DNA of 64,000 nucleotides from an uncultured bacterium (GCA_938027655.1 CALJAP010000021.1:15879-79878); one strand, 5' to 3'. Numbered from the stretch's first letter, positions 9,321 to 61,397 are shown. Program-made: numbers and translations. The notes: generated from the letters alone by a model not told the origin.

Positions 9321-10094
9321 GTGTGTAAATATCGCTTTTTCGTCCCGCCTGAGCAGTTCTCGGATGGTATCGTGTGCATCACGGGGGAGGATGCCCGCCA
9401 GATTCGCGTGGTGCTTCGGCTACAACCGGGCGACGAAATCGGTGTGCTGGACGGCTCGGGCAAAGAATATCGTTGTGTGCTGGAATCGGTACGTAAAGAG
9501 GAAGCGGTCGCACGCATTGGTGAGCAGAGGCTTCCGGAGGTGGAGCCGAAGACGCATATTACGGTGGTACAATCGTTGGCGAAGGGCGACAAGGTGGAAC
9601 GGGTCATTCAGCACGGCACGGAGATAGGGGTTTCCCGTTTCGTGCTGGTACAGACCGAACGCAGTGTGGTGCAACTGAACGGGGAGCGCGAGAGGGAGCG
9701 CGTAGAGCGATGGCGGCGAATCGCGAAGGAGGCAGCGGAACAGGCGCATCGGGCAATAGTGCCGGCGATAGAGGGAGTGACCTCACTCCGGCGCGCGCTG
9801 GAGCAGATGAGCAGCACGAGTATTGTGACACTCCATCCCGACGGCAGCACCCTACCTCTGGTAGAATGGATACGACGCAGACCGCCGACAGGACGGGTCG
9901 CCGTTATCGTCGGTCCCGAAGGCGGACTGACGGATAAAGAGGTAGACCTCTGTGTAAGGTATGGCGCAGTGTCTGTTTCGCTGATGCCTCGTATTTTGCG
10001 TACAGAGACGGCGGCGCTGGTAGCGGTAAGCCAGATACTGTTCGTCACGGAGCATCTTGCTGACACGGGCTTCGTCGGGCAGGATCTTACATAA
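9321..10094 (+). CDS. rsmE: 16S rRNA (uracil1498-N3)-methyltransferase RsmE
   Basis: RFFVPPEQ N-terminus, PUA-like domain and C-terminal SPOUT domain ([12 protein letters not shown]). Confidence 0.8.
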
Positions 10095-23011: not shown

Positions 23012-23566
23012 ATGCCGTACAAATTCAAGGAGCGGTGGCTGGATCGCGCCCTGCACCGCCGCCACTTCGAAGCCTTTGTGGTGTTCCTGATCATGCTGAC
23101 CGTGTTGGGCATGGTGTTGAATCTCTATGGCAAAGGCAGTGAAGCCGCCAACCGCACCGTCTGTCGTGCCAACCTTCGCCATCTGGTGCAGGCGCTGCGG
23201 TTATACGCCCAGGATTACGACGACCACTACCCTGCACAGACGCGCTGGGTGCGCCTGGTCTCCGCTTACACTGACAACCTGAACGTGTTCTTCTGTCCAT
23301 CGGATAACCGTCCCCGCCCCAGACGCGAACGCGCGGAAGTTGCGGTATCCTACTGGTACAGCCGCCCGCCGTCCGCCGGCGACGAAAGCTCCCTTGCGGT
23401 CTTTGGCGACGTGATGTACTCGAACTGGATTGGCAACCACGAGGACGGCGGCAACGTGGCATATCTGGATGGACATGTGTCGTGGCGCAACGTGGAGCAG
23501 TGGCAAGAGGAGAGGTTGCCTGTGGAACAGCTGGTACGGAAGGGGAAACGTCGGTCAGCGAAGTAA
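23012..23566 (+). CDS. H-X9-DG domain protein (DUF1559-like) with a degenerate N-terminal pilin-like helix
   Basis: C-terminal HEDGGNVAYLDGHVSW (H-X9-DG) plus NVFFCPSD and RLYAQDYDDHYP motifs. The N-terminus HRRHFEAFVVFLIMLTV lacks the canonical G|FTLIEL prepilin cleavage motif. Confidence 0.55.
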   Translation: MPYKFKERWLDRALHRRHFEAFVVFLIMLTVLGMVLNLYGKGSEAANRTVCRANLRHLVQALRLYAQDYDDHYPAQTRWVRLVSAYTDNLNVFFCPSDNRPRPRRERAEVAVSYWYSRPPSAGDESSLAVFGDVMYSNWIGNHEDGGNVAYLDGHVSWRNVEQWQEERLPVEQLVRKGKRRSAK

Positions 23567-43114: not shown

Positions 43115-44809
43115 TCACTGCCTCACCTCCCTCTTGCGCTGGGCGGCGCGCATGTTCAAGGTGAGCAGCACGGTAAAGAACAGCGTGTAAAACGCCGCGA
43201 TGCTCCACCGCGAAGGAGCAGGTAACGCCATACTCGCCCATGCCGGGAGTGCTAGCAACCGAACGCTTTTGTCCACCGTCCACGCGCTCAACGCTATTGG
43301 GGCGCAGAGCAAGTCGGGCAGCCAAGGTAGGCACGCTGCCACCAGCCCCGCGCAGGTAAGCACCTGCACCGGCATGGCGATAACAAGGTTGGCTATGGGC
43401 GCAATCAAGGACATTTGACCATAGTATAACGCGGTCAGCGGGGCGGATGCCAGCGTGCAGATGACACTCAAGCACACGACAGCGAGGATTGCTCGCAAGG
43501 GGCGCAGTCTGTCGCTTGCCGCGCCTGTGGCGATAGCCCCGGTCCATCCTGCCGAAGCCACTATCGCAGCCACCAGCGTAAACGAGAACTGAAAGCTGGG
43601 GTCACGCAGTGCGCCGGTGTCTGACAGCACAATCAGGAACCCCGCCAGCGCGAGCGAGGTTGGCAAGTCGCCCTCTCGTTGCAGAGCAGTGGCTCCTGCG
43701 ATAAGCGTGCCCATGATGGCGGCGCGCAAAGAGGGGTCTCCACCTGCAGCCACTCCTGCGAACAACCAAATAACCAGTATAACCGCCAGCGCAGAAGCCT
43801 TGCGTGACAGGTTGGCAAACCGGCATATCGCCCACACCGCTATCGCCAGCATCGAAACGTGCGTTCCCGATGGCGAGAGGATATGTACTGTGCCGGTACG
43901 CCGGAAGTTTTCGCGAATGGCATCGTCCAGTTTTACACGGTCGTTCAGCACAATTGCAGCGGCGATGTGTCCTTCGCGCGTGGGCAGATGGAGGCGCAGG
44001 TTGCGTATCAACATCCGGCGCAAGCGCGAGAAGAGAACGCTCCAGTGCGGTTGGGGCAGGTGCTGGATGCGGTATGGACGCAACGTTCTGGAGATGCCTT
44101 GCCTGCGCAGGTATCGCGCAAACGATGCGTCCGGGTCTGTCGGCGTGGCGGAGGGCATCCGTAACCTGCCCTCCAGGTGCACACGTTCACCCGCGAATAC
44201 GTTGTCTACCAGCGTTTCCGGCACATGCACCCACAGACGCACCGGCGTGCGAATGGTGCGGTGTGCAGTAACCAGGCTTTCTGTGCGCAGGACAAACCGC
44301 CATGTACCCGCTTTTCGGGTCGGCTCTGTGGTCACCACGCCGGTAGCCGCCACCACCTCGTCGCGGGGCAGGGTGCGCCAGAGCAGGTCATCGCGGTAGG
44401 CGTAGCGAATGCCCTGTGTTGCGCCCAACCACAGCGCCAGCACACTCAACAGGGCGGTTGTTGCGGAAAGCAGCCGATACCGCTGGAGTAGCCATCCGCC
44501 AGCGGTCAGGAGCAGACATCCCTGTATCACCGGCAGGGGAGAAAAGGTCACGCCTGCGGCAGCTCCCGCCAGGTAGCCGCCGCAGAAAGTTGCCAGCGGT
44601 CTGCCGTTGACCGCTTGAAACCGTTTGCGCCACCTCTTCTCAAAGGCTGCAGATTGCATCCGTGCCCGCGCTCCGGCGTAGTGGTTCGTTATACCGCTTT
44701 CTCTGAAGGGCGTCATGTTCCTGCCGTACCGTTTGGGACAGGAGAGGGTTTCAGTCCCAGTGCGCGCCCGACAGATTGCCCGCACAAAAGGAAAATCCCC
44801 CTCCTGCAT
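43115..44809 (-). CDS. comEC: ComEC/Rec2-family DNA internalisation channel protein (no beta-lactamase domain)
   Basis: Polytopic membrane protein with the competence domain motif ILSPSGTHVSMLAI. Confidence 0.6.
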   Translation of the reverse strand: MQEGDFPFVRAICRARTGTETLSCPKRYGRNMTPFRESGITNHYAGARARMQSAAFEKRWRKRFQAVNGRPLATFCGGYLAGAAAGVTFSPLPVIQGCLLLTAGGWLLQRYRLLSATTALLSVLALWLGATQGIRYAYRDDLLWRTLPRDEVVAATGVVTTEPTRKAGTWRFVLRTESLVTAHRTIRTPVRLWVHVPETLVDNVFAGERVHLEGRLRMPSATPTDPDASFARYLRRQGISRTLRPYRIQHLPQPHWSVLFSRLRRMLIRNLRLHLPTREGHIAAAIVLNDRVKLDDAIRENFRRTGTVHILSPSGTHVSMLAIAVWAICRFANLSRKASALAVILVIWLFAGVAAGGDPSLRAAIMGTLIAGATALQREGDLPTSLALAGFLIVLSDTGALRDPSFQFSFTLVAAIVASAGWTGAIATGAASDRLRPLRAILAVVCLSVICTLASAPLTALYYGQMSLIAPIANLVIAMPVQVLTCAGLVAACLPWLPDLLCAPIALSAWTVDKSVRLLALPAWASMALPAPSRWSIAAFYTLFFTVLLTLNMRAAQRKREVRQ

Positions 44810-45917: not shown

Positions 45918-47480
45918 TTACCACCCCGCCGCGTGACCGTCACAGCGGGGGTCGGAACCGGCAAGGAGCGCCTTGCTTTGGGGATGCACCGCAATCACCT
46001 GCACCGCTCCCGATTGCCCCCAGTCGGGTAACAGCAGCACGCGATGCCCCTTGCGCTCCAGCTTTTGCAGGGTCTCCATCGGCGTGCGACGCTCGACTTT
46101 CAGCCCTTCCGGGTCGTGCTGCCAGCGGGGGGCTTCCACTGCCTCCTGGGGGTTCATGCCGAAGTCTATCAGGTTGCAGATAATCTGCGTGTTGCTCTGT
46201 ACCTGCACATCGCCACCCGGCGTGCCGCCCACGAAAGCCAGTTCGTCGCCGCGCGTCAGCAGGTAGGCGTTGAGGGTGTGCGCGGTACGCTTGACCGGCT
46301 CCAGCGCGTTGGGGCTGTTGGGGTCTAACGAGAAGCCCGTCATACGGTTGTTGAACAGGATGCCCGTGCCTTCCGCTACCTGCATACACCCAAAAGAGTG
46401 GAAGATGCTCTGGATAAAGGAGATGGCGTTGCCGTAGCGGTCCACGACGCAGAAGTAGGTGGTGTCATGCTCAATCTCGCCGGCGGTGACGCGGTCGGCG
46501 GCGCGGTTCAGGTCTATCTGCTGGCGGCGTCGCTCTGCATACCCTTTGCTCAGCAGAACGTTCATCGGCACGTCCACAAAGCGCGGGTCGCCAAGGTAGG
46601 CGTGCCTGTCCGCGAAAGCGAGTTTCTTCGCCTCCACCTGCAGGTGGATGACCTCCGCGCTGAGCGCGCCCATACTGCGCAGGTCGTAGCCCTCCAGCAG
46701 GTTCAGCATCTGCGCGAGGATATGTCCTTGTGATACGGGCGGTTGCGCGTGCAGGGTGTACCCGCGGTACTCCACGCGAAGCGGTTCCAACCACTCGGCG
46801 GGCGGCTGCGCGAGGTCCTCTTCCGTACACAGTCCCCCGTGGTGCTGGCAATGACGCACGATGCGCTCGGCAATCTCGCCCCGATAGAAGTCCATCGGTC
46901 CGGCGGTGGCGATGCGGGTCAGCGTCCAGCCGAGGTTCGGCTGGGTGACCATCTTGCCCGGGTAGGGTAGCTCCCCGTCAGGCACCAGCTCGCGCCAGGT
47001 GATGGGGAACTGTCGCAGCAGGTGCTCATGCGCAGCAAACACCTGACTGTAACGGTAGCCGGCGGGAAACCCCTGCTGGGCGTAGCGGATAGCGGGCTGG
47101 AGCAGTTCCGAAAGCTCACGGGTGGCGTATCGCTCGTGCAAAAGCGCCCACGCAGATACCAGCCCGGGTACCGACGCGCTCTGCATACCGCGTGCAGGGA
47201 TACCGTCGTGGAAACGCTCGCGTGTCGCCGCACGCGGGGCAGGACCGGAGGCGTTGAGCGCATGCGTCTGACGTGTGCGGGCGTCGTACACTATCACAAA
47301 AGCGTCTCCACCGAGGTGGCTGTTGTAGGGCTCGATCACCGTCAGCACCGCGCTGATGGCGATCGCGGCATCTACGAAGTTACCACCTTCCTGTAGCACA
47401 TGCAGTCCCACTGCCGTTGCCAGCGGTTGAGAGGTTGCCACCGCCCCGTTTCGGGCAACCACGACGCCACGATAGGTCAT
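45918..47480 (-). CDS. ggt: Gamma-glutamyltranspeptidase
   Basis: 520 aa, with the autoprocessing-site region ...TTYFCVVDRYGNAISFIQS.... Confidence 0.85.
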   Translation of the reverse strand: MTYRGVVVARNGAVATSQPLATAVGLHVLQEGGNFVDAAIAISAVLTVIEPYNSHLGGDAFVIVYDARTRQTHALNASGPAPRAATRERFHDGIPARGMQSASVPGLVSAWALLHERYATRELSELLQPAIRYAQQGFPAGYRYSQVFAAHEHLLRQFPITWRELVPDGELPYPGKMVTQPNLGWTLTRIATAGPMDFYRGEIAERIVRHCQHHGGLCTEEDLAQPPAEWLEPLRVEYRGYTLHAQPPVSQGHILAQMLNLLEGYDLRSMGALSAEVIHLQVEAKKLAFADRHAYLGDPRFVDVPMNVLLSKGYAERRRQQIDLNRAADRVTAGEIEHDTTYFCVVDRYGNAISFIQSIFHSFGCMQVAEGTGILFNNRMTGFSLDPNSPNALEPVKRTAHTLNAYLLTRGDELAFVGGTPGGDVQVQSNTQIICNLIDFGMNPQEAVEAPRWQHDPEGLKVERRTPMETLQKLERKGHRVLLLPDWGQSGAVQVIAVHPQSKALLAGSDPRCDGHAAGW

Positions 47481-48169
47481 TCGCCCGGCTCCTTTCCCCG
47501 TTGCAGTTCCGCCTCCAGCGCGCGCACACGGGCTTCCAGTTCCGCTGCCTGTTCGGCGAGCTCCATTGCGGTCGGGATGGCACGTCCTTTCGTGGGATCG
47601 TAGAGCCGCACCTTATATCCCTCATCCTCTGCCCGTACCACGATGGATAACCCCAGCCGCTCGCTATGAGCGCGCCACTCACGGTCGTTCGGTCGCTCGT
47701 TGGGAATCCGCTGGTACTCATGCCCAACCAGGCGGTGCAGCATCACAGGCTCTATGAGGTAATCGCGTGTGACATCTATCAGGATGTACTCCTTCACGCC
47801 CAGTCGTTGGTAGAGCCGGTATTTCCTGCCCAAATCCTCCGGTGCGGTAGAGCGGGAGGTCAGTTCGAATATCACATCCGGCGCTTTGCCCATCTCCCAC
47901 ACTTTCCACGTGGGGCGCCAGGGGCGTTTAGGCACTCCGAATGCCACATACACATCGGGAGCAACGCGCTGAGAGGGGTTGCCCTCAATCCAGTACATGA
48001 ACTGATTACCCGCTACATACACATCTTCGCGCCCGGCGAAGTACCGCATCAGCGCGTCCAGCAGATACAGCATCGCTTCCAGATGTTCAGGCGTCTCTGC
48101 CATTGGCTTCCCATCCGACACAGGATAGCGTACGCTTTCTATTGCCTGCGAGATTGCCATCGGCATCAC
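47477..48169 (-). CDS. Uma2-family (DUF820) putative restriction-endonuclease-like protein
   Basis: YVAGNQFMYW...APDVYVAF...APDVIFELTS...EYILID (PD-(D/E)XK). Coiled-coil C-terminal tail. Confidence 0.75.
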   Translation of the reverse strand: MMPMAISQAIESVRYPVSDGKPMAETPEHLEAMLYLLDALMRYFAGREDVYVAGNQFMYWIEGNPSQRVAPDVYVAFGVPKRPWRPTWKVWEMGKAPDVIFELTSRSTAPEDLGRKYRLYQRLGVKEYILIDVTRDYLIEPVMLHRLVGHEYQRIPNERPNDREWRAHSERLGLSIVVRAEDEGYKVRLYDPTKGRAIPTAMELAEQAAELEARVRALEAELQRGKEPGE

Positions 48170-49242: not shown

Positions 49243-51570
49243 CTAATCAGGTGGTGTTGCCCGCGTCGGTATCTGTAGCGGACGCCCCACGCTATCGGTG
49301 AAGCGTACCGTCAGATTCCAGAGGTTGCCGTGATTGACGACCTTGACCACCAGCAGGTGCCACCCTGCACCATTTCCGGGCACCGACACGCGGTCTTGGT
49401 CGGGCTGGAAGCCGCGAGGCACATCTGCTACCAGAATCGGCTTGCCGTCCAGCCACACCGCCGCGCCGTCGTTGCTGCCCAGCCGCAGGCTGATGACTGG
49501 GAGACCGGGCAGCTGTACCCAGCAGGCAGCGTACGCGCTCACCCAAGGGTCACTGCACAACAGGCTGCGCAGATCGAGTAAGCCGAAGGGGTGATTGACG
49601 CTTACTTGCCGCCAGCCCGCTTCCCCTGACAATGTGGAGAACTTCTGGGAAAGGTTAACTGCATCTACCGGAATGTCCGCGTTGCTCAGCTCGCCCGGGT
49701 TGCAGCGGAACGGTCCTATCACCTGCCACTCGGTGATGAAGCCCAGCTTGTGGGCGAACGCCGCGCCTTCCTTTTGCGCCTCGCGCCACGCCTGTCCGCG
49801 CGCCTCGGTGGTAGTGTAGCCTGCGCTTGTCAGCAGTTCCACGTATGCCTGCGCCTCGCTACCGCGCTCTTGCGACTCGTGCCGTGCCAGCCACATATCG
49901 ATGATGTCATGCTGACCGCTGTTTTGCAGCTCCTGCACCATCTGCGCGAACTGCAGGTCCGCCTCCCAGGCGCGCATGATGTCGCCAGCGCGTCGGGCGG
50001 TTGCCGCCTGCCACTGGAGGGTGTAAACGCGGTGCCCGATTTGCAGCTTGCGTACCCGCTGTTTCACCGCCTCCGAACGCGCTTTGCTGAACGCCTCCTC
50101 CAGCAACTGGCGCCCCTGTTCCATTGCTTCCGAGGAGGGATACACCCACCAGTCCTCGTGGTTCTTCGCCTTCAGGGGCATACTCGCCATCAGGTTCTCA
50201 TACAGGGTGAAGTATCGGTACACCGGCTCGGCGGATTCGGCGAACAGATGCTGGCAAAACTCACGGATTAGCGCGTCGGTATCGGTTTGCGGATTCCACA
50301 CCAGCTTCACCGCCGCGAAGATATTCAGGGGCTGCGTCCACCAGTCATCATGTGTCTCACTGTTCAGGTGCTCGATGCCCACCTTCGCATAGAAGGGGAT
50401 GTCTACCTTCAGCGTATGCACCAGCGGCCATTGCCCGAACCACTGCCAGTGCCCGTAGTAGTCGTAGATGCCCACATGGGGACACAGCTCGCGCCAGCGC
50501 AGTACCGCTTGACGAAACCGTCTGCACGGGGCGCAGTCAGCGGTGATGGGATGGGCGTGACAGAACTCCCACGGCGTGTGACATATCACCGGCATCAGAT
50601 TGGGGTGAGGCTTTACCTTCAGGGGTGGGTCGGTGTGCGTGAGGTAGGCGTAAAAGCAGAGTATCTTATCCGGGTAGCGCTTCGCTACCTCTTCCGCAAT
50701 CTGGTTGAAAAACACCAGCAGGCGGTCGGTGAACTGTCCTCCGGGCGCGAAGGGGTCTACACCCAGCTCTCGGTCCAATGCACGGCAACGTTCGCACTGG
50801 CAAAACTTGCCGGAGTCGTTGGGTGACAGAGAGAAGGTTTTCGCCTGCGGGTTTTTCTCAAAGTAGTCCAGCACCCTCTGGATAGCGAGACGGATGACCT
50901 CGGGATGGGTGGTACACAGCTGCCACTTCCGTTGCCCGTCGATGAGCGCGAACCATTCGGGATGTCGGTCCACCTCCTTCAGGGAGATAATGCCTTCCCA
51001 GTTGTGGCTGTGCCAGTAGGGTTGAAACCCTGCCAGGCGGTTGCGCCGTCTCCACTCTGCGCCTCTAGGCGGGTCTGCCTGATAGCCGCCGAAGCCGGTG
51101 ACGCTAGGGATGGCAGGCTCGCGCGTTTCATCCAGCGCAGGTATCGTGACGGTTTTCTGCCGGGGTACATACTCGCCCAAATCGCCCGGGATGTACCAGC
51201 GTACACCCAGATGGTCCTCCAGTAAACCGTAAATGCCGTTGACCACGCCCGCTTCGGTCGCCCCCTCAATGAAGAGGCGGTTGCCCTCTGTGCGCAGGCG
51301 GTACCCCACATCCGACAATCCCCGCATGCCGGCACGCAGCACGATAGCGGCACGGTTCGCAGGCGGTTCCGAGACCACAGGCAGACGCGCCCCGGACATC
51401 TTCTCGATGTAAACCTGCAGGTCGTTTACCGCTGCAGAGAGGTCGCCGCGAGCTTCGGGGGGTGCCACGATTACCGCTTGTGGATTGCCGTTGCGCACCA
51501 GGGTAACCCGCGCAGCCGCGTTCACGGGAGCCATAGCGAGCAACAAACCGATGAAGCAACAAGCGATCAC
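49243..51570 (-). CDS. Secreted DUF4838-like putative glycoside hydrolase
   Basis: Signal peptide MIACCFIGLLLAMAPVNAAA. The N-terminal region resembles DUF4838/GH-like proteins. 775 aa. Confidence 0.4.
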   Translation of the reverse strand: MIACCFIGLLLAMAPVNAAARVTLVRNGNPQAVIVAPPEARGDLSAAVNDLQVYIEKMSGARLPVVSEPPANRAAIVLRAGMRGLSDVGYRLRTEGNRLFIEGATEAGVVNGIYGLLEDHLGVRWYIPGDLGEYVPRQKTVTIPALDETREPAIPSVTGFGGYQADPPRGAEWRRRNRLAGFQPYWHSHNWEGIISLKEVDRHPEWFALIDGQRKWQLCTTHPEVIRLAIQRVLDYFEKNPQAKTFSLSPNDSGKFCQCERCRALDRELGVDPFAPGGQFTDRLLVFFNQIAEEVAKRYPDKILCFYAYLTHTDPPLKVKPHPNLMPVICHTPWEFCHAHPITADCAPCRRFRQAVLRWRELCPHVGIYDYYGHWQWFGQWPLVHTLKVDIPFYAKVGIEHLNSETHDDWWTQPLNIFAAVKLVWNPQTDTDALIREFCQHLFAESAEPVYRYFTLYENLMASMPLKAKNHEDWWVYPSSEAMEQGRQLLEEAFSKARSEAVKQRVRKLQIGHRVYTLQWQAATARRAGDIMRAWEADLQFAQMVQELQNSGQHDIIDMWLARHESQERGSEAQAYVELLTSAGYTTTEARGQAWREAQKEGAAFAHKLGFITEWQVIGPFRCNPGELSNADIPVDAVNLSQKFSTLSGEAGWRQVSVNHPFGLLDLRSLLCSDPWVSAYAACWVQLPGLPVISLRLGSNDGAAVWLDGKPILVADVPRGFQPDQDRVSVPGNGAGWHLLVVKVVNHGNLWNLTVRFTDSVGRPLQIPTRATPPD

Positions 51571-51640: not shown

Positions 51641-52798
51641 TTATTCAGGCCCCGCAGGAATTGCCTGCCCCTGTGCGCTATCCCAACCATGCAGGTTGCC
51701 GTCCAGCGCGCACAGCACGTTCGAATGCTGTGCCTCCAGTTTTGCTTCCTCGGTGATGTCGTGTCCACCCACTGCTGCCATGCAGGGATAGCCCGCCTTG
51801 CGCATCAGCTCGGCACGACGACGCGCCCGGGCAACATCGCTTACATCGACCACCATCGAAACTTCCATCACCAGATAAATATCCCTGTCCGGTGCGTCTA
51901 GTGGGCGTCCGCGCGCGATGATGTCCGCCGAGAAGATGTCCACTATTTCATCGCCAGCGAGCGCTTGCCTGACCTGCTCCTCGATGTCCGGCGGTGACAA
52001 CAGCCGTACGCGGCGCATTACCTTGCCCAAGTAGGCGTGGATGTGCTTGGCGTAGTGCATCTCCAGACGCCAGCCGCGCAGGTCGTCGATGTGCACATCG
52101 CGCACCTTCTGCCATTCCACCAGCCTGTCTATCTTCTCTGCCAGTAGCGCTATCTGCATATCGATGCGGTCTAGCCTGCTGTTAGTTGCCTCACGATAGG
52201 AGGAGAACTCCTCCACCACACGGTTGTGGCTTTCGGTCAACGCCTGTAATGCCGCCTCAATGCGTGCGAAACGCTCCTCTGATGCCTGGCGATACGCGGC
52301 AAACTCCTGTGCCAGATGCTCCAGCGCCGCCTCAATGCGTGCGAAACGCTCCTCCGATGCCTGGCGATAGGCAGCGAACTCCTGAGCCTGACGCTCCAGC
52401 GCCGCCTCGATTCGTGCGAAACGCTCCTCCGACATCTGGCGGTAAGACACGAACTCCTGAGCCTGACGCTCCAGCGCCGCCTCAATGCGTGCGAAACGCT
52501 CCTCCGATGCCTGACGATACGCGGCAAACTCCTGTGCCAGATGCTCCAGCGCCGCCTCAATGCGTGCGAAACGCTCTTCCGACATCTGGCGGTAAGACAC
52601 AAATTCCTGTGCCTGACGCTCCAGAAGGGACTCGATCCGCGCGAATCGCTCGGCGGATTGCTCGGCTAATCGCTCCACCTTTGCAGGCAGGGCGAGGAAC
52701 TCGTCCGGCGCGAGGGCGACAAACACCTTTCGGCGCAGCTCCGCATTGCTACGCAGAAGCTCTATCAGTTCTTCTACATCGGGAGTGTCGATAGGCAT
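51641..52798 (-). CDS. Coiled-coil protein built from 25-aa (75-bp) tandem repeats, with a C-terminal domain possibly of restriction-endonuclease-like fold
   Basis: EERFARIEAAL(E/H)(R/L)(Q/A)AQEF(V/A)(S/A)YRQ(M/A)S repeated about 5.5 times at near identity. The C-terminal 150 aa contain D...DIYLVMEVS...D in a PD-(D/E)XK-like arrangement. Confidence 0.5.
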   Translation of the reverse strand: MPIDTPDVEELIELLRSNAELRRKVFVALAPDEFLALPAKVERLAEQSAERFARIESLLERQAQEFVSYRQMSEERFARIEAALEHLAQEFAAYRQASEERFARIEAALERQAQEFVSYRQMSEERFARIEAALERQAQEFAAYRQASEERFARIEAALEHLAQEFAAYRQASEERFARIEAALQALTESHNRVVEEFSSYREATNSRLDRIDMQIALLAEKIDRLVEWQKVRDVHIDDLRGWRLEMHYAKHIHAYLGKVMRRVRLLSPPDIEEQVRQALAGDEIVDIFSADIIARGRPLDAPDRDIYLVMEVSMVVDVSDVARARRRAELMRKAGYPCMAAVGGHDITEEAKLEAQHSNVLCALDGNLHGWDSAQGQAIPAGPE

Positions 52799-53476: not shown

Positions 53477-54903
53477 CGGCGTAGTAACTCCTCGGCGACT
53501 TTGCCCTCACGATACCACTCGCGGATGTCCACAAAATGCCCGGCGATGGCTGCAGCAGCTGCCATTTGGGGGCTCACTAGGTGCGTGCGTCCACCGCGCC
53601 CTTGCCTGCCTTCGAAGTTGCGGTTGCTGGTCGACGCAGAGCGTTCGCCGGGCTGTAGAATATCAGCATTCATGCCCAGACACATGCTACAGCCCGAATC
53701 GCGCCACTCGAAGCCCGCTTCGATGAAGATGTGATGCAACCCCTCTTCCTCCGCCATCTTCTTGACGCGCTGTGAGCCGGGAACCACCATCGCCCGCACG
53801 TGCGGAGCTACCTTCTTGCCCTTGGCCACCGCCGCTGCCGCCCGCAGGTCGCTGAGCCGACCGTTGGTGCACGAGCCGATAAACACCCGGTCTACCCGTA
53901 TCTCCTGAATAGGCGTGCCGGGCTTTAGCCCCATGTACTGCAGGGCGCGTTCTGCCGCCTTTGCCTTCGTCTCATCGGTGAAGGAGGCGGGGTCTGGCAC
54001 GCAGTCGGTCACGCTTACTACCTGCTCAGGGCTGGTGCCCCAGGTGACCTGTGGTGCAAACTCTGCAACGTCAAACTGCACCTCACGGTCGAACCGCGCA
54101 TCGGGGTCAGACGGTAGGGTTTGCCAGTAGGCAACTGCTCGCTCGAACTGCTTGCCCTGCGGGGCGAAGCGTCTGCCTTCCAGATAGGCGAAGGTGGTCT
54201 CGTCTGGGGCAATCATGCCAGCACGTGCACCCGCTTCGATGGACATGTTGCATATCGTCAAGCGCTCCTCCATGCTCAGCGAACGAATAGCCTCGCCCAT
54301 ATACTCAATCACGCAGCCGGTTCCTCCCCCCGCGCCGATGCGCCCGATGATACTCAAGATGATGTCCTTGGCGGTAACGCCCAGCGGAAGCGTTCCCTCT
54401 AGCCGAATCGCCATCGTGCGGGGCTTTGTCTGCAGCAGGGTCTGAGTTGCCAGCACATGTTCCACTTCCGACGTACCGATGCCAAATGCCAGCGCACCAA
54501 ATGCGCCATGCGTAGAGGTGTGGCTATCCCCGCACACAATGGTCAGCCCCGGCAGGGTAATGCCCAGATGGGGTCCGATAACGTGCACAATACCGTTGTC
54601 TTCGCTGTCGAGGTCGAACAGCGTAATGCCGAACTCTTCGCAGTTGCGACGTAACACCTCAATCTGCCTGCGGGAGATAGGGTCGGTAATGTTCCAGCGG
54701 TTATCCGTAGGCACGTTGTGGTCCATCGTGGCGAAGGTCAGGTCGGGACGACGCACCTTGCGTCCTGCTTCGCGCAAGCCATCAAACGCCTGTGGCGAGG
54801 TGACCTCATGCACCAGGTGGCGGTCGATGTATAGTAAAGTCGGTCGTCCTGGCTCCTCATGGACGACGTGCGCGTTCCAGATTTTCTCAAACAGGGTGGG
54901 CAT
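53473..54903 (-). CDS. leuC: 3-isopropylmalate dehydratase large subunit
   Basis: Aconitase-family Cys ligands (...GSCTNGR...) and overlap with leuD. Confidence 0.92.
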
Positions 54904-54932
54904 AGAGCAGCATCCTCCTTTGGGTTTTTATT

Positions 54933-54941
54933 ATACCACGT
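54933..54941 (-). promoter_or_regulatory. Extended -10 promoter (TGgTATAAT) for leuCD
   Basis: Minus-strand ACGTGGTATAAT lies about 30 nt upstream of the leuC ATG, followed by RBS GGAGGA. Confidence 0.5.
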
Positions 54942-55030
54942 GCAGCACGCGGCGCAGTACCCTTGCAAGTTTGCCGGTTCCCCTGCACCTTTTTCACAAA
55001 AAATTCTGGAGCAAATACGCTTCACCGTAT

Positions 55031-55059
55031 TGACTCTTTTGGAAGGCTCGCGTATACTA
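55031..55059 (+). promoter_or_regulatory. Sigma70 promoter TTGACT-17-TATACT
   Basis: Near-consensus hexamers with a 17-nt spacer, about 110 nt upstream of the 55174 gene. The leader contains the hairpin GACAGC-cgtatgc-GCTGTC. Confidence 0.65.
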
Positions 55060-55173
55060 AAAGTACTTAATCGTTTCATGACAGCCGTATGCGCTGTCTC
55101 TCTATAGCGGCTTGCTCCGAGAGTCAGGGCGGCACATTGACAACGCTACTCGATTCAAAGAAGGAGGTCTCCC

Positions 55174-55944
55174 ATGAAACACGGAAGGGCTTTTACCCTT
55201 ATCGAGCTGCTTGTTGTCATCGCGATTATCGCGATACTGGCAGCGATCCTGTTCCCGGTGTTCTCGCAGGCGCGCGAGAAGGCAAGGCAGACGCGGTGTC
55301 TGTCGAACTGCAAGCAGATCGGGCTGGCGACCATGATGTACATTCAGGACTACGACGAAGTGATGCCGCCCGGGTACGACTACCGGCAGGGAGGCGACAC
55401 TACGGTCTGGTACATGTAACTGCTCTGGCCCTACATCAAGGACGGGCAGGTATGGACGGGTGCGGGCATTCGGGGGTGCCCGTCGGCAACATGGCCGTCG
55501 GCATGGGCGTATGCCTATAACGACGTGCTGAACTACAAATCGCAGGCGGCGATGCCCCGTCCTGCGGAGACCATCTTGCAAGGCGATACCGGACAGGTAC
55601 CCGAATGGGGTGGTTACTGCTCCTCCACCTTCTGGAACTGGTGGACTCCGGAGGTATGGCAAGACCCCGTCACCGGTTCGGTTCCGCCCCCGAACTACTG
55701 GGACGATAACCAGGTGAACCCGCTGTCGGTGCTGCTGTGGAAACTCCCTGACGGCACCAACATCGACGATGATGCGCCCAACCCCATCCAGATTTGGAGC
55801 GCGGTTGGCAAGGTGGGTAACCTGCGTTACCGCCACAACGAGGGCGCAAACATCACCTTCGCCGACGGTCACGCCAAGTGGTTCAAGCGCGGCGGAACGG
55901 TGAAGCTGTACCACTTCCGGTTTGCCCTGCAGAACCGGCTGTAG
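55174..55944 (+). pseudogene. H-X9-DG (DUF1559) prepilin-like protein gene interrupted by a single in-frame TAA at 55417-55419
   Basis: ORFs 55174-55419 and 55525-55944 are in the same frame with only one stop between them. The read-through product [63 protein letters not shown]...WYM*LLWPYIKDGQVW...CPS...HNEGANITFADGHAKWFKRGG is a complete family member. Confidence 0.7.
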
Positions 55945-56029
55945 TATTGGACACGGCTGTCATGAAGAGGGGGAGCCTGGACGGCTCCCCCTTACTGTTC
56001 CCCCCGGCGCTGTGTCCCGAACGGGATGT

Positions 56030-56347
56030 TCACCTGTTTTCCCGCGCTGCGCCCGAAAGGCTCTGCGCGTCTATTTTTCCTTTCAGTTTGCCATCTGCGC
56101 CGTAAAAGGCGACGCTTTCGGTGCCTATTGTCGCGCGAAGGCGTCCCTGTGCATCGTACAGCACCAGCAGGGTATCCTCGCCGGAGGTTTTCAGCTCGGC
56201 GCGGATTCTGCCCTCCCCGTCTACCAGCTCAATTCGCTGCGTGCGGGTGACGGCAGCAGTCGGTACTCTAGATTGCGCCCACAGAGTGCCTATTGCCAGC
56301 AGAAATGCTGCGGCAAGCAGCGGCATCGCCAGTCCTCTGGTTCTCAT
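56030..56347 (-). CDS. Small secreted hypothetical protein (105 aa)
   Basis: Signal peptide MRTRGLAMPLLAAAFLLAIGTLWAQS. No recognisable domain. Confidence 0.35.
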   Translation of the reverse strand: MRTRGLAMPLLAAAFLLAIGTLWAQSRVPTAAVTRTQRIELVDGEGRIRAELKTSGEDTLLVLYDAQGRLRATIGTESVAFYGADGKLKGKIDAQSLSGAARENR

Positions 56348-59600: not shown

Positions 59601-60485
59601 GGCTTCGGCGACAGGGTACGCTTGCGATGGCATACCGGCATCGTCGGGGCGCATCATGCCAACCTGCTGGAGGAACCCCTGCAAGCCCTTTCTCTGCAGG
59701 ACGGAGCGGTAGAGTTCCCGCTGGATAGCTTCGCCATCGAAACCTTCCTGCTGAAGCCGAAACCTTTTACCCCGAAGGGCGGACGCCGTGTGCTGGGCGC
59801 AACGACCGAACCCGTGCAGCCGGTGTACGTGCGCTACTGGCAACACAATCTCGGCGCCGACCCCATCGGCTACCTGCCGGTGGCGGTGAGCCTGCGCGGA
59901 GAGGTGAAGACGGGTATCCACATCCGCCAGGGAGGCGTGACGGTCAACACGATCGAGGTGGGCGTCGTGAATAACCTACGCGACCGCAACGCGACGGGCG
60001 TCGTTCGCCTAATCGTCCCGGAAGGCTGGCACACTGTGCCTGCGGAGATTCCGTTTGACCTGCCTCCGGGCGAGGCACACTGCTGGAAGGTGCTGCTCTG
60101 CTTCGACACACCGCGGCGGACGGGTGTGGTGCGCGCCCGGCTGGAGTGGGATGGGCAAACTTATGAGGATATTCTGGAGGTCGGACGCGAGTACTTCCCC
60201 GAATGGGATGTACATCTCGTTCGGAATGCGCTGCTCGTGCGCCTGCGCAACGGCACAGACGACCTCATCCATGGCGCGGTGCAGGTGATTACGCCACTGG
60301 AGACATGGGGCGACGCCGCGGGACTATACCGCCTGACCGCTGGCGGCAAGCACACGCAGGGTTTCGGTCTGCAACCCGACGAGCGTGCGGAGATACGCTT
60401 CGAGGGGGAGCCACCGCCCGGGCGAGGCTTCATCATCGTAAAGGTGATGGCGCATGGCAAGGTAGAGTACCGCAAGGTACAATAA
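56670..60485 (+). CDS. GH38-family alpha-mannosidase
   Basis: VVPGFHSDVVWLEDQ and ...GGSHSQPTETVIGGEGIVRNILYGRWY... match the GH38 N-terminal catalytic domain. 1271 aa. Confidence 0.7.
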   Translation: MAQRTCTYVVPGFHSDVVWLEDQRDYAVSLLGDMHQNLQILRIDPRYGVFLHELTYLKPYLDTHPEALPEVRRWVQEGRIGTGGSHSQPTETVIGGEGIVRNILYGRWYHEGVLGDQPWIYMPWDVFGHTAQLGQILRKSRFRGCIWSKDIRGALAVFWHLALDGEPLLFKRMGYWLPSGDPETFLKAIDDFFQEMRSLGFTADCRLDCVDFKPPTAWMAGRCEELAGREHAVIISGIGHEQWFEHAFRQHEERTVSIPVTSRDYEWHHQGTGLSRIELKIGNRLAEQNLHQAEFFATVAHLLGAEYPDKALDKAWRQLLFNQHHDGIAGPSCDRAYLDMMAGFREALELAHDVRSRSLRYICDQTDTAYTAPPPTVIALQVHNALGWSRTDAVHVTLRFPKPVSGFRIEDSEGNAVPCQLESPVPPRLPLHEAEVTLLARDIPAMGFRTYRVVETDSLPPAPRLIPGYAIENEFFRVTADPQLGGGLSSLFDKQAGREVLNPQAGPGNEIVALLEKADRAEPAWECYTLGPKWFSRDYAANVQAWQGPVQSRLVIRGEMRSCEREQVVSLTQGVRRIDFATQLQRYRGENELFVVTFPVNVQNAEPVFEERFGAITKRKSKGKLDFRFHQWRNFSECGARHACQWVDLSGAAWVRFADGQQRPFGMCHLVTSHHPASVQAAYTLQRALIRKGVPCTPVYDDFDAPRRLQLPVEDTILPFPNNPNEDLSLGMSFRVVFSLNGDNTYLSDLMAHLPETQATRLQALLSEQQGIALVDDPDMPDGWQPLPVLVIAAKDEATLQQMVQQLSEQIEQSAAIVLPAEANLLQRPIPADSYGVALVNTGNVLNSVENDNTMVLFLMHTAAWGGTPWGKPDRLPFVFIPEHKTHLFRYSLYPHRGDWREAQTARVGWEVNNPLQTVQGMLHGGALPLDYSFLQVEAKGAILTALKPADNPTGRFESGAVDAERGSIVVRLYDPTGFGDRVRLRWHTGIVGAHHANLLEEPLQALSLQDGAVEFPLDSFAIETFLLKPKPFTPKGGRRVLGATTEPVQPVYVRYWQHNLGADPIGYLPVAVSLRGEVKTGIHIRQGGVTVNTIEVGVVNNLRDRNATGVVRLIVPEGWHTVPAEIPFDLPPGEAHCWKVLLCFDTPRRTGVVRARLEWDGQTYEDILEVGREYFPEWDVHLVRNALLVRLRNGTDDLIHGAVQVITPLETWGDAAGLYRLTAGGKHTQGFGLQPDERAEIRFEGEPPPGRGFIIVKVMAHGKVEYRKVQ

Positions 60486-60505
60486 AGGCCGGAGGTGGGC
60501 GAAGC

Positions 60506-61162
60506 ATGCAACCCGCGCTGAAAACCGACAAGATGACCATGACCTATGAGGAGTTCCGTCAGTGGGCAGGGGAAGATACCTGTGCCGAGTGGGTGGATGG
60601 GGAGGTCATTTTACCGAGGCCACCAAAGAGAAAACATCAGTCTATCACTATATTCCTGACCCGATTGCTGAGTGATTTTCTGGAACTCACCGGGCAGGGA
60701 GAAGCGATTGCCGCTCCTTTTGAGACCTTTTTACCCTCTCGCCCAGCATCGCGCGAGCCGGATATAATCGTGGTGCTCAGTGAGAATCTGCAAAAGTTGA
60801 GCGAGGAACGCTTCACCGGTGCCCCTGACCTTGTGGTGGAGGTGGTTTCGGAGGATAGCGTGCGCCGTGACCGGATGGAGAAGTTTCTGGAATACGAGCG
60901 CGAGGGCGTGCGCGAGTACTGGCTGGTCGATTCGCGCCCGGCGCATCTGGGGGTAGATGTCTTCACGCTGGAGCAAGGCAGTTTCGTGCCTCTCGTGCCG
61001 AGTGAAGAAGGCTGGCTGGAGAGCAAGGTGCTGCCCGGCTTCCGGGTGAAGGAGACGTGGTTTACCGGGCAATCGCTTCCTGACGTGTACAGCGCGTTGA
61101 GCGAGATGCTGTCTCCCGATTTAAAGCAGAAGCTGGCGCAGAAGCTGGGCATCCCCCTGTAG
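60506..61162 (+). CDS. Uma2-family (DUF820) putative endonuclease
   Basis: MTYEEFRQW...AEWVDGEV...PDIIVV...APDLVVEVVSE...REYWLVD. The ATG at 60506 has RBS GGAGGTG. The track ORF extends upstream to 60203. Confidence 0.8.
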   Translation: MQPALKTDKMTMTYEEFRQWAGEDTCAEWVDGEVILPRPPKRKHQSITIFLTRLLSDFLELTGQGEAIAAPFETFLPSRPASREPDIIVVLSENLQKLSEERFTGAPDLVVEVVSEDSVRRDRMEKFLEYEREGVREYWLVDSRPAHLGVDVFTLEQGSFVPLVPSEEGWLESKVLPGFRVKETWFTGQSLPDVYSALSEMLSPDLKQKLAQKLGIPL

Positions 61163-61397
61163 GGGCAACCCTATGTGGTTGCCCCTACCCTATGTGGTTG
61201 CCCCTACCCTGTGTGGTTGCCCCTGCCCTGTGTAGTTGCCCCTGCGCTATGCGGTTGACCCTACCCTATGCGGTTGCCCCTGCGCTATGTGGTTGCCCCT
61301 GCCCTGTGTGGTTGCCCTGCCCTATGTGGTTGCCTCTGCCCTATGTGGTTGCCCTGCCCTATGCGGTTGCCCCTGCCCTATGTGGTTGCCCCTGCCC
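61163..61397. repeat. Tandem array of a 19-bp unit CTATGTGGTTGCCCCTGCC, 12 copies with point variants (two units are 18 bp)
   Basis: Head-to-tail copies with no spacers. The period is not a multiple of three. The array begins with the hairpin GGGGCAACC-ctatgt-GGTTGCCCC. It fills the entire gap between the convergent stops at 61162 and 61405. Confidence 0.9.

Follow-up and report, generated by a model that had tools for sequence, protein, structure and literature searches.

Independent nonsense alleles of a conserved pilin-like H-X9-DG/DUF1559 gene in an uncultured bacterium and its sister strains

Introduction

What does a lone in-frame stop codon mean when it sits within an otherwise complete and conserved gene? 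The question is raised by a prepilin-like gene of the H-X9-DG/DUF1559 family at positions 55174-55944 (+ strand) of a 64,000-nt stretch of DNA from an uncultured bacterium (GCA_938027655.1 CALJAP010000021.1:15879-79878), referred to below as the window. Proteins of this family make up some of the largest sets of paralogs in Planctomycetota, Verrucomicrobiota and Armatimonadota. An earlier note on this DNA had set three explanations of the stop side by side, namely a very recent nonsense mutation in a large paralog family, a sequencing or assembly error, and regulated read-through. The main point that we can add is that the same gene bears different, independent stops in sister strains. In our reading, the window most probably carries a real null allele, one of several recurrent and locally favoured knock-outs of a conserved and apparently highly expressed pseudopilin-like gene.

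Results

A full-length family member interrupted by one stop codon

The gene is made up of the following parts, all on the + strand of the window:

55174-55416, +, translatable part, codons 1-81: leader MKHGRA, inferred cleavage before F7, helix alpha1 and ∼22 more residues
55417-55419, +, premature stop TAA at codon 82, from CAA (Gln) via one C>T transition at 55417
55420-55944, +, untranslated remainder, codons 83-256 and the TAG stop: the whole globular pilin-like head with LLWPYIK, CPS and H-X9-DG
55834-55869, +, H-X9-DG motif, H221-G232, with the invariant H233 directly after it

Translation confirmed the arrangement that the earlier note had described. The two open reading frames (ORFs) into which the ORF list splits the gene, 55174-55419 (81 aa) and 55525-55944 (139 aa), belong to one frame of 256 sense codons, and the TAA at 55417-55419 is the sole internal stop between them. 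The 81-aa product is on record as P0136, on a 106.9-kb NCBI/ENA contig. The note had also taken the read-through product for a full family member, and this was borne out by profile searches, in which PF07963, PF07596 and TIGR04294 all scored above their curated cut-offs. The N-terminal motif at residues 1-27 matched both PF07963 (N_methyl; 32.7 bits, cut-off 21.2) and TIGR02532 (28.9 bits, cut-off 16.3), and residues 32-94, which span the stop, matched PF07596 (DUF1559; 47.6 bits, cut-off 23.3), this match covering only profile positions 2-66 of 268. The H-X9-DG C-terminal domain of TIGR04294 was found at residues 218-238 (25.5 bits, cut-off 19); across 80 homologs, H221, D231 and H233 were invariant and G232 nearly so (≥90%). 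The coding sequence itself is interrupted in the window, by the TAA at codon 82, and intact in the species-representative orthologs.

Membership of a named equivalog was not found: TIGR01710 (GspG) scored 32.1 bits against a cut-off of 88.85 and NF041775 (PilA) 32.7 bits against 400, both models matching the N-terminal helix only. An AlphaFold2 model (96%-identical ortholog, 80 homologs; mean predicted local distance difference test score 90, predicted template modelling score 0.84) consists of a single long helix, alpha1, at residues 9-59, followed by a globular domain, and a Foldseek search of this model against solved structures returned no significant match. By sequence, the entries in the Protein Data Bank (PDB) closest to the N-terminal 66 residues were the naturally truncated geopilins of Geobacter (E = 2e-14 to 2e-11). 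Judged by these profiles, the product is a pilin-like protein of the H-X9-DG family that lies outside any characterised pilin group.

Elsewhere in the window, a 184-aa ORF at 23012-23566 (+) ends in an H-X9-DG-like motif, HEDGGNVAYLDGHVSW, and has neither a prepilin motif nor a Pfam match. This ORF may represent a relative of the family that has diverged or that has a different N-terminus.

The stop codon is derived and very young

A protein search returned an intact 256-aa ortholog with 96% identity (P0001), followed by further orthologs graded down to ∼50%. The DNA of P0001 (L001) is syntenic with the window and lies beside leuC and leuD; the ATG-TAA-CTG of the window corresponds there to ATG-CAA-CTG. 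Among species-representative genomes, a scan turned up eight more orthologous loci, all from Armatimonadota or unclassified metagenome-assembled genomes (MAGs) and including 'Bacterium HR16', and a pattern scan of metagenomes added one. The orthologs from both scans were uninterrupted throughout, and codon 82 was a Gln codon (CAA or CAG) except in the two 72% orthologs, which have Met. Comparison with related strains, a check that the earlier note had proposed, gave TAA in one contig (L094) and CAA in L082, L085, L093 and L095, the codon also seen in L001, L002 and L004; L003 has CAG. Alignment to DUF1559 homologs, proposed in the same place, showed that the TAA replaces the Gln (CAA/CAG) of the close orthologs. 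Since every ortholog examined other than this allele has a sense codon at 82, and the close ones CAA or CAG, the stop is derived, by a single C>T transition.

The earlier note had placed the stop within a conserved LLPYIK-CPS motif, which holds only in part. The stop does lie just before the conserved L83, P86 and Y87, codon 82 directly preceding the block L83-L84-W85-P86-Y87, but the codon-82 residue itself is variable in the wider family, where Q, M, G, K, T, N and S all occur in this column.

The age of the stop can be judged from the ratio of nonsynonymous to synonymous substitution rates (dN/dS) on its two sides. Between the window and L001, this ratio was 0.028 before the stop and 0.035 after it; the corresponding values were 0 and 0.057 against L003, and 0.064 and 0.095 against L004. 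With dN/dS as low after the stop as before it, the last two-thirds of the gene must have been under strong purifying selection until very recently, and the stop is very young. This agrees with the first of the three explanations in the earlier note, that of a nonsense mutation of very recent date. Unlike most family members, this gene is a single-copy syntenic ortholog beside leuCD, with a dN/dS of ∼0.03-0.06.

Sister strains carry different stop codons in the same gene

Short products in the 90%-identity clusters around the orthologs led us to contigs L082, L085 and L084 and to that of P0138, which were fetched. Sister strains 99.3-99.8% identical to the window carried different, private stops in the same gene. 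L082 (ERZ6863697), which is 99.5% identical to the window from the ribosome-binding site (RBS) to the end of the 6.2-kb contig, has CAA at codon 82 and a TAC>TAA change at codon 68 (Y68*), together with F153S in the conserved SSTFWNWW motif. L085 (ERZ6863514), 99.1-99.3% identical to the window over 12 kb, also has CAA82 and carries TGG>TGA at codon 85 (W85*). A further allele was found in a different species-level clade with 82% nucleotide identity: L084 (Logan ERR14790939) has TGG>TAG at codon 143 (W143*), seen on two contigs.

As a search for short products biases the sample, we re-sampled the sister strains free of this bias, by exact look-ups of the neighbouring LeuD and a 105-aa ORF, and obtained three informative contigs. 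L093 is open from codon 19, where the contig ends, to the natural stop, with TAC68, CAA82 and TGG85, and has the same haplotype as L085. L095 has CAA82 and TGG85, its sequence covering codon 81 onward only. L094 (Logan contig, run ERR9287632) is identical to the window over 55227-56100, TAA included, and shows 10 other differences in 5960 nt. From Y68*, Q82* and W85*, together with the apparently intact L093, it follows that one species holds at least three independent null alleles plus an open one.

These contigs bear directly on the suggestion of a sequencing or assembly error, according to which the true base at 55417 would be C. The window does seem to derive from a MAG, a point in favour of an error. 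However, the same T is present in L094, which was assembled independently and is not the same consensus as the window, because 10 positions elsewhere differ, and assembly error was rejected as the cause of the TAA on this ground. Furthermore, random error would not give sister assemblies differing single-base stops in the same gene. The window contains no other such stop over the 16 kb covered by sister strains, and the compared genes were free of indels, except for the copy number of a 75-nt tandem repeat in one ORF. All of this renders an error extremely unlikely. On the combined evidence of orthologs and sister contigs, the window allele is a real and very recent nonsense mutation.

P0138, in which an unrelated N-terminus is joined at LLYPYVKD, was considered as a rearrangement at the same site and dismissed as G/T-rich junk at a contig end. 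On L086 (a JGI contig), ∼125 nt of unrelated G/T-rich sequence (1-125) is joined exactly at codon 82/83 (…LLYPYVKD); we judged this junction to be an assembly artefact at the contig end and note the coincidence of position. In L082, the leader (1-185) is only ∼70% identical to window positions 55030-55155, compared with 99.5% for the coding sequence, pointing either to recombination with a breakpoint at the RBS or to a chimera at the end of the contig.

Read-through of the stop and a downstream restart are not supported

Regulated read-through, the third explanation in the earlier note, fared poorly as well. Programmed read-through, recoding or an alternative genetic code would mean that the TAA is decoded and a full-length protein made, and two features speak for this, namely the fully open frame after the stop and the C that follows it. 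A C after the stop is the weakest termination context in E. coli. However, we did not find a stop conserved at the same position; at codon 82, the other orthologs examined encode Gln or Met. A single suppressor could not act on all of the other null alleles, which stop elsewhere in the gene and in three different ways (TAA, TGA and TAG), and L082 already bears the damaging F153S downstream of its own stop. An alternative code was rejected because TAA is an ordinary terminator in this window and the commonest one, ending 18 of its 45 long non-overlapping ORFs (8 of them as TAA-C). Similarly, the window contains no tRNA gene and no Rfam match, and hence neither a suppressor tRNA nor a known RNA element. 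Bacteria are not known to recode UAA. Decoding of the TAA thus retains next to no probability.

A downstream restart could be dismissed too. The first in-frame start after the stop, GTG 55525, is not preceded by a Shine–Dalgarno-like sequence, and the fragment that would begin there has no signal peptide. Because the downstream 174 codons have no RBS or export signal of their own, the window allele would be functionally null, and as the gene is probably monocistronic, the stop would have no polar effect. Fixed gene fission of the PilA-N/PilA-C type was likewise rejected, as the stop position differs among sister strains, an open allele exists, and the C-terminal half lacks start and export signals.

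Nonsense changes are in excess over neighbouring genes

We classified all substitutions among the sister contigs over ∼16 kb and compared the pilin-like gene with its ten neighbouring genes (4,402 codons):

Pilin-like gene: 2 synonymous, 1 missense, 3 nonsense
Ten neighbouring genes: 75 synonymous, 43 missense, 1 nonsense

The excess of nonsense changes in the pilin-like gene was significant (Fisher's exact test, p = 2.5e-4), also without the window's own ascertained stop (p = 3.9e-3) and when the repeat-containing ORF was left out in addition (p = 9e-3). Of all single-base changes possible in the gene, 4.4% would yield a stop, compared with three of the six variants observed (binomial 1.5e-3; 0.018 corrected). 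The excess is not due to hypermutation, because the substitution density in the gene equals the background (against L082, 4 in 771 nt, compared with ∼29 in 6000). A diversity-generating retroelement or targeted hypermutation found no support, for the same reason, and the changes were not adenine-specific either.

Across all fetched loci, the two terminal motifs shared a frame in 112 family genes, of which 108 were uninterrupted, and the four exceptions were the alleles described here; none of the 97 non-orthologous family members in these loci had a single in-frame stop. By design, this search could find only open frames with stops. A scan of the whole window for pairs of same-frame ORFs split by one stop was uninformative, as the GC-rich sequence gives too many spurious open frames. 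On these data, the nonsense enrichment in the pilin-like gene is real, but it consists of few events.

Could the stops be real but neutral? In this main rival to a favoured loss, the gene would be redundant among H-X9-DG paralogs, null alleles would drift, and the enrichment would come from chance and ascertainment. DUF1559 families are indeed large and mostly non-essential, only 2 of the 68 DUF1559 paralogs of Planctopirus limnophila being essential (PMC10632474), and with six variants in the gene the numbers are small. Drift is hard to reconcile, however, with a long-term dN/dS of 0.03-0.06, which speaks against dispensability, with the retention of the ortholog and of the helix between its untranslated regions (UTRs; described below) down to 72% protein identity, and with a promoter that is likewise conserved. 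The share of stops among the variants and the absence of interrupted paralogs at other loci also argue against it. We therefore regard neutral drift as possible but rather unlikely.

Several points nevertheless weigh against a recurrent, favoured loss. Six polymorphisms amount to few events, and L082, L084 and L085 were first found by the search for short products. Nonsense polymorphism is not unique to the pilin-like gene, because its neighbour GH20b/DUF4838 also carries a private nonsense allele in L085 (Q519*, CAG>TAG), which favours neutrality. The 'intact' allele of L093 lacks codons 1-18, where its contig ends. That the selective agent would be a phage, a predator or a cost is something we infer from the pattern, and the DUF1559 family has no established function in the literature (PMC10632474, PMC2754498).

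The stops of one species cluster just after helix alpha1

The stops at codons 68, 82 and 85 fall within 18 codons just after alpha1, and each of the three products would retain the leader and the membrane helix without any of the head. Given the positions of stop-prone codons, the probability of a span of ≤17 codons is 0.02-0.04, in a post hoc test on three points. This clustering of the three same-species stops would fit another explanation, in which the stops are favoured for the truncated product and not for loss of function: an alpha1-only mini-pilin of ∼61-78 mature residues, similar to a geopilin. The Y68* product would have 61 residues once the 6-residue leader is removed, geopilins are the best PDB match of the N-terminal 66 residues, and fission of a pilin gene is known from Desulfuromonadales (PMC5174107). 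On the other hand, the fourth allele stops at codon 143, no lineage has a fixed truncated form, the species-representative orthologs all being full length, the C-terminal part has no start or export signals, and the clustering statistic is post hoc. Selection for truncation is accordingly very unlikely. Equally improbable, in our estimate, is its corollary that a mini-pilin with a filament function of its own would represent the first step of a Geobacter-type pilin fission, caught while still polymorphic.

Conserved expression signals and a predicted helix between the mRNA ends

The gene is flanked by the following signals:

55030-55058, +, sigma-70-type promoter: TTGACT (55030-55035), 17-nt spacer, TATACT (55053-55058); 10 of 12 consensus positions
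55066-55088, +, leader box CTTAATCGTTTCATGACAGCCGT near the predicted mRNA 5′ end, conserved in aligned orthologous loci
55075-55088, +, 5′ arm of the UTR helix (last 14 nt of the CTTAATCGTTTCATGACAGCCGT box), ∼10 nt from the predicted mRNA 5′ end
55134-55143, +, second leader box ACATTGACAA; TGACAA core invariant and the rest nearly so in 7 aligned ortholog leaders
55161-55167, +, Shine–Dalgarno sequence AAGGAGG, 6 nt before the ATG, invariant in aligned orthologs
55953-55966, +, 3′ arm of the UTR helix, ACGGCTGTCATGAA, 9 nt after the stop codon, 100% complementary to the 5′ arm
55967-55993, +, G+C-rich terminal hairpin with an 11-bp stem and a 5-nt loop, terminator-like, with no canonical U-tract

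Both the near-consensus promoter and the strong RBS that the earlier note had reported were recovered at these positions. The promoter is the only such site in 54900-56100, where 0.4 would be expected, and both of its hexamers are kept at orthologous loci down to 82% protein identity. The 15-nt core of the CTTAATCGTTTCATGACAGCCGT box occurs once in the window and, among 81 loci compared, only at the orthologous ones. The terminal hairpin, which a simple terminator scan did not call, lies directly 3′ of the ACGGCTGTCATGAA arm, and a hairpin is found at the equivalent position in all orthologs.

Both arms of the 14-bp helix were present in 12 of 12 distinct orthologs, and standard pairs filled 168 of the 168 pair cells. 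One pair occurs in AU, UA, GU and UG states and five more have G-U variants. The resulting covariation score was reached by none of 500 shuffles, and slid controls were 27-52% paired. The helix also appears in both the minimum free energy and the centroid fold of the predicted 933-nt transcript, the ends of which were taken from the promoter and the terminal hairpin. The G-U states speak for pairing of the flanking repeat at the RNA level and against a site of DNA recombination. An invertible or mobile DNA cassette was rejected accordingly, because some of the variants combine G with T, which only RNA would tolerate (as G-U), and so was a phase-variable locus switched by a repeat or an invertible segment, since all changes in the gene are point substitutions and the flanking inverted repeat has these wobble states. 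By covariation and folding, the 14-bp helix is a candidate mRNA end-clamp, which would fit a highly expressed and stable message. As such, it offers a clean candidate for end-pairing of a bacterial mRNA outside model organisms.

Two further observations concern the leader. Positions 55073-55080, GTTTCATG, are complementary to the start-codon region at 55173-55180, CATGAAAC (23-nt arms, 74% complementary). Being complementary to two sites, the leader could have two alternative partners, the initiation region and the 3′ UTR. In L001, the leader (∼9690-9960, compared with window 55100-55130) contains ∼240 extra nt in two blocks, the conserved boxes being kept.

Neighbourhood of the gene

The 75-nt (25-aa) tandem repeat mentioned above is present in five copies at 52251-52624, inside a 385-aa ORF (51641-52798, −) that has only weak Pfam matches, below cut-off. 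Its copy number varies among the sister strains, giving products of 385 aa (window), 310 aa (L085 and L089) and 285 aa (L088). GH20b/DUF4838 is an intact 775-aa ORF in the window (49243-51570); its equivalent in L085 is 1066-2622 plus 295-1029, and the nonsense variant corresponds to window position 50016. On the other side of the pilin-like gene, the window and its sisters share a segment of ∼910 nt (60473-61383) that contains a Uma2-family gene (PF05685; 60506-61162) and is missing from L003, the closest other species. The window has a second Uma2-family gene at 47477-48169.

In L001 (1-4532) and L083 (838-5628), a row of three secretin genes is found beyond leuCD, 4-9 kb upstream of the pilin-like gene. 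In the corresponding region of the window, no secretin was found among the ORFs scanned; GGT, Uma2, aldolase, GH20b and ComEC-like (43115-44809) genes are present there.

Discussion

The bacterium belongs to the Armatimonadota and is related to 'Bacterium HR16', and the locus is its single syntenic ortholog of a strongly conserved prepilin-like gene of the H-X9-DG/DUF1559 family. The encoded protein would be of the pseudopilin type, its leader peptide and hydrophobic N-terminal helix being followed by a globular head similar to that of pilins. With a single C>T change turning Gln82 (CAA) into TAA, translation would end after 81 residues, and the truncated product would keep the leader, alpha1 and ∼22 residues and lose the entire head together with H-X9-DG. 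Taken alone, the stop in the window is an ordinary young null allele, and the locus should be annotated as a single disrupted gene or pseudogene and not as a pair of genes.

Seen alongside the other alleles, it points to a recurrent, locally favoured and evolutionarily short-lived loss of what may be an abundant, exposed subunit of a surface or periplasmic filament. The null alleles are apparently not maintained, given that the species-representative orthologs are all intact and dN/dS is ∼0.03-0.06. Possible drivers would be evasion of a phage or predator that makes use of the structure, or a saving in the cost of expression. A conserved and apparently highly expressed ortholog that is repeatedly lost within a species is what one would expect if an exposed structure had to contend with a fluctuating enemy or cost. 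Independent knock-out of the same gene in sister strains and in another species may therefore provide a first selective clue to the role of the family.

Comparison with known systems

Within the H-X9-DG/DUF1559 family (PF07596 and PF07963; TIGR04294), the gene is typical in that all three signatures score above cut-offs, and thousands of homologs share the architecture of the read-through product. It differs in being interrupted at codon 82 and in being single-copy and syntenic beside leuCD. Compared with type IV pilins and the pseudopilins of type II secretion systems (PilA, GspG/PulG/EpsG), the product shares the prepilin cleavage/methylation motif with Glu at +5 and the long alpha1 followed by a globular head, and its sequence-profile matches in the PDB are pilins. 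In contrast to these, the head is about twice the size of that of GspG and contains the family-specific H-X9-DG motif, and Ala takes the place of the usual Gly before the cleavage site. The window ORFs that were scanned included no gene for a peptidase, an ATPase or a secretin, the ComEC-like gene being the only find.

The PilA-N/PilA-C pair of Geobacter and other Desulfuromonadales (PMC5174107) resembles the split seen here, with an N-terminal part that is alpha1-only and a globular C-terminal part. There, fission has become fixed and each half is expressed as a gene of its own, whereas here it results from private, strain-specific nonsense changes, and the C-terminal part has no translation or export signals.

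For the UTR helix, the closest parallel is the hbs mRNA of B. subtilis, which is stabilised by an interaction between its 5′ and 3′ UTRs (PMC5737220). In both cases, the extreme 5′ end pairs just upstream of a terminal hairpin, in a message with a strong Shine–Dalgarno sequence and apparently high expression. Organism and gene are unrelated, and the helix described here is supported by covariation in 12 orthologs and by thermodynamic prediction.

Finally, pilus and other surface genes are known to lose function under phage or predation pressure or during adaptation, for example when pilin nulls are selected by pilus-specific phages. Such losses usually arise from a mix that includes indels, IS insertions and deletions, whereas the alleles seen here, in a search able to find only open frames with stops, are all point nonsense changes. 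The likeness lies in the pattern itself: multiple independent nulls of one pilin-like gene stand beside an open allele within one species, and nonsense changes occur in significant excess over the neighbouring genes.

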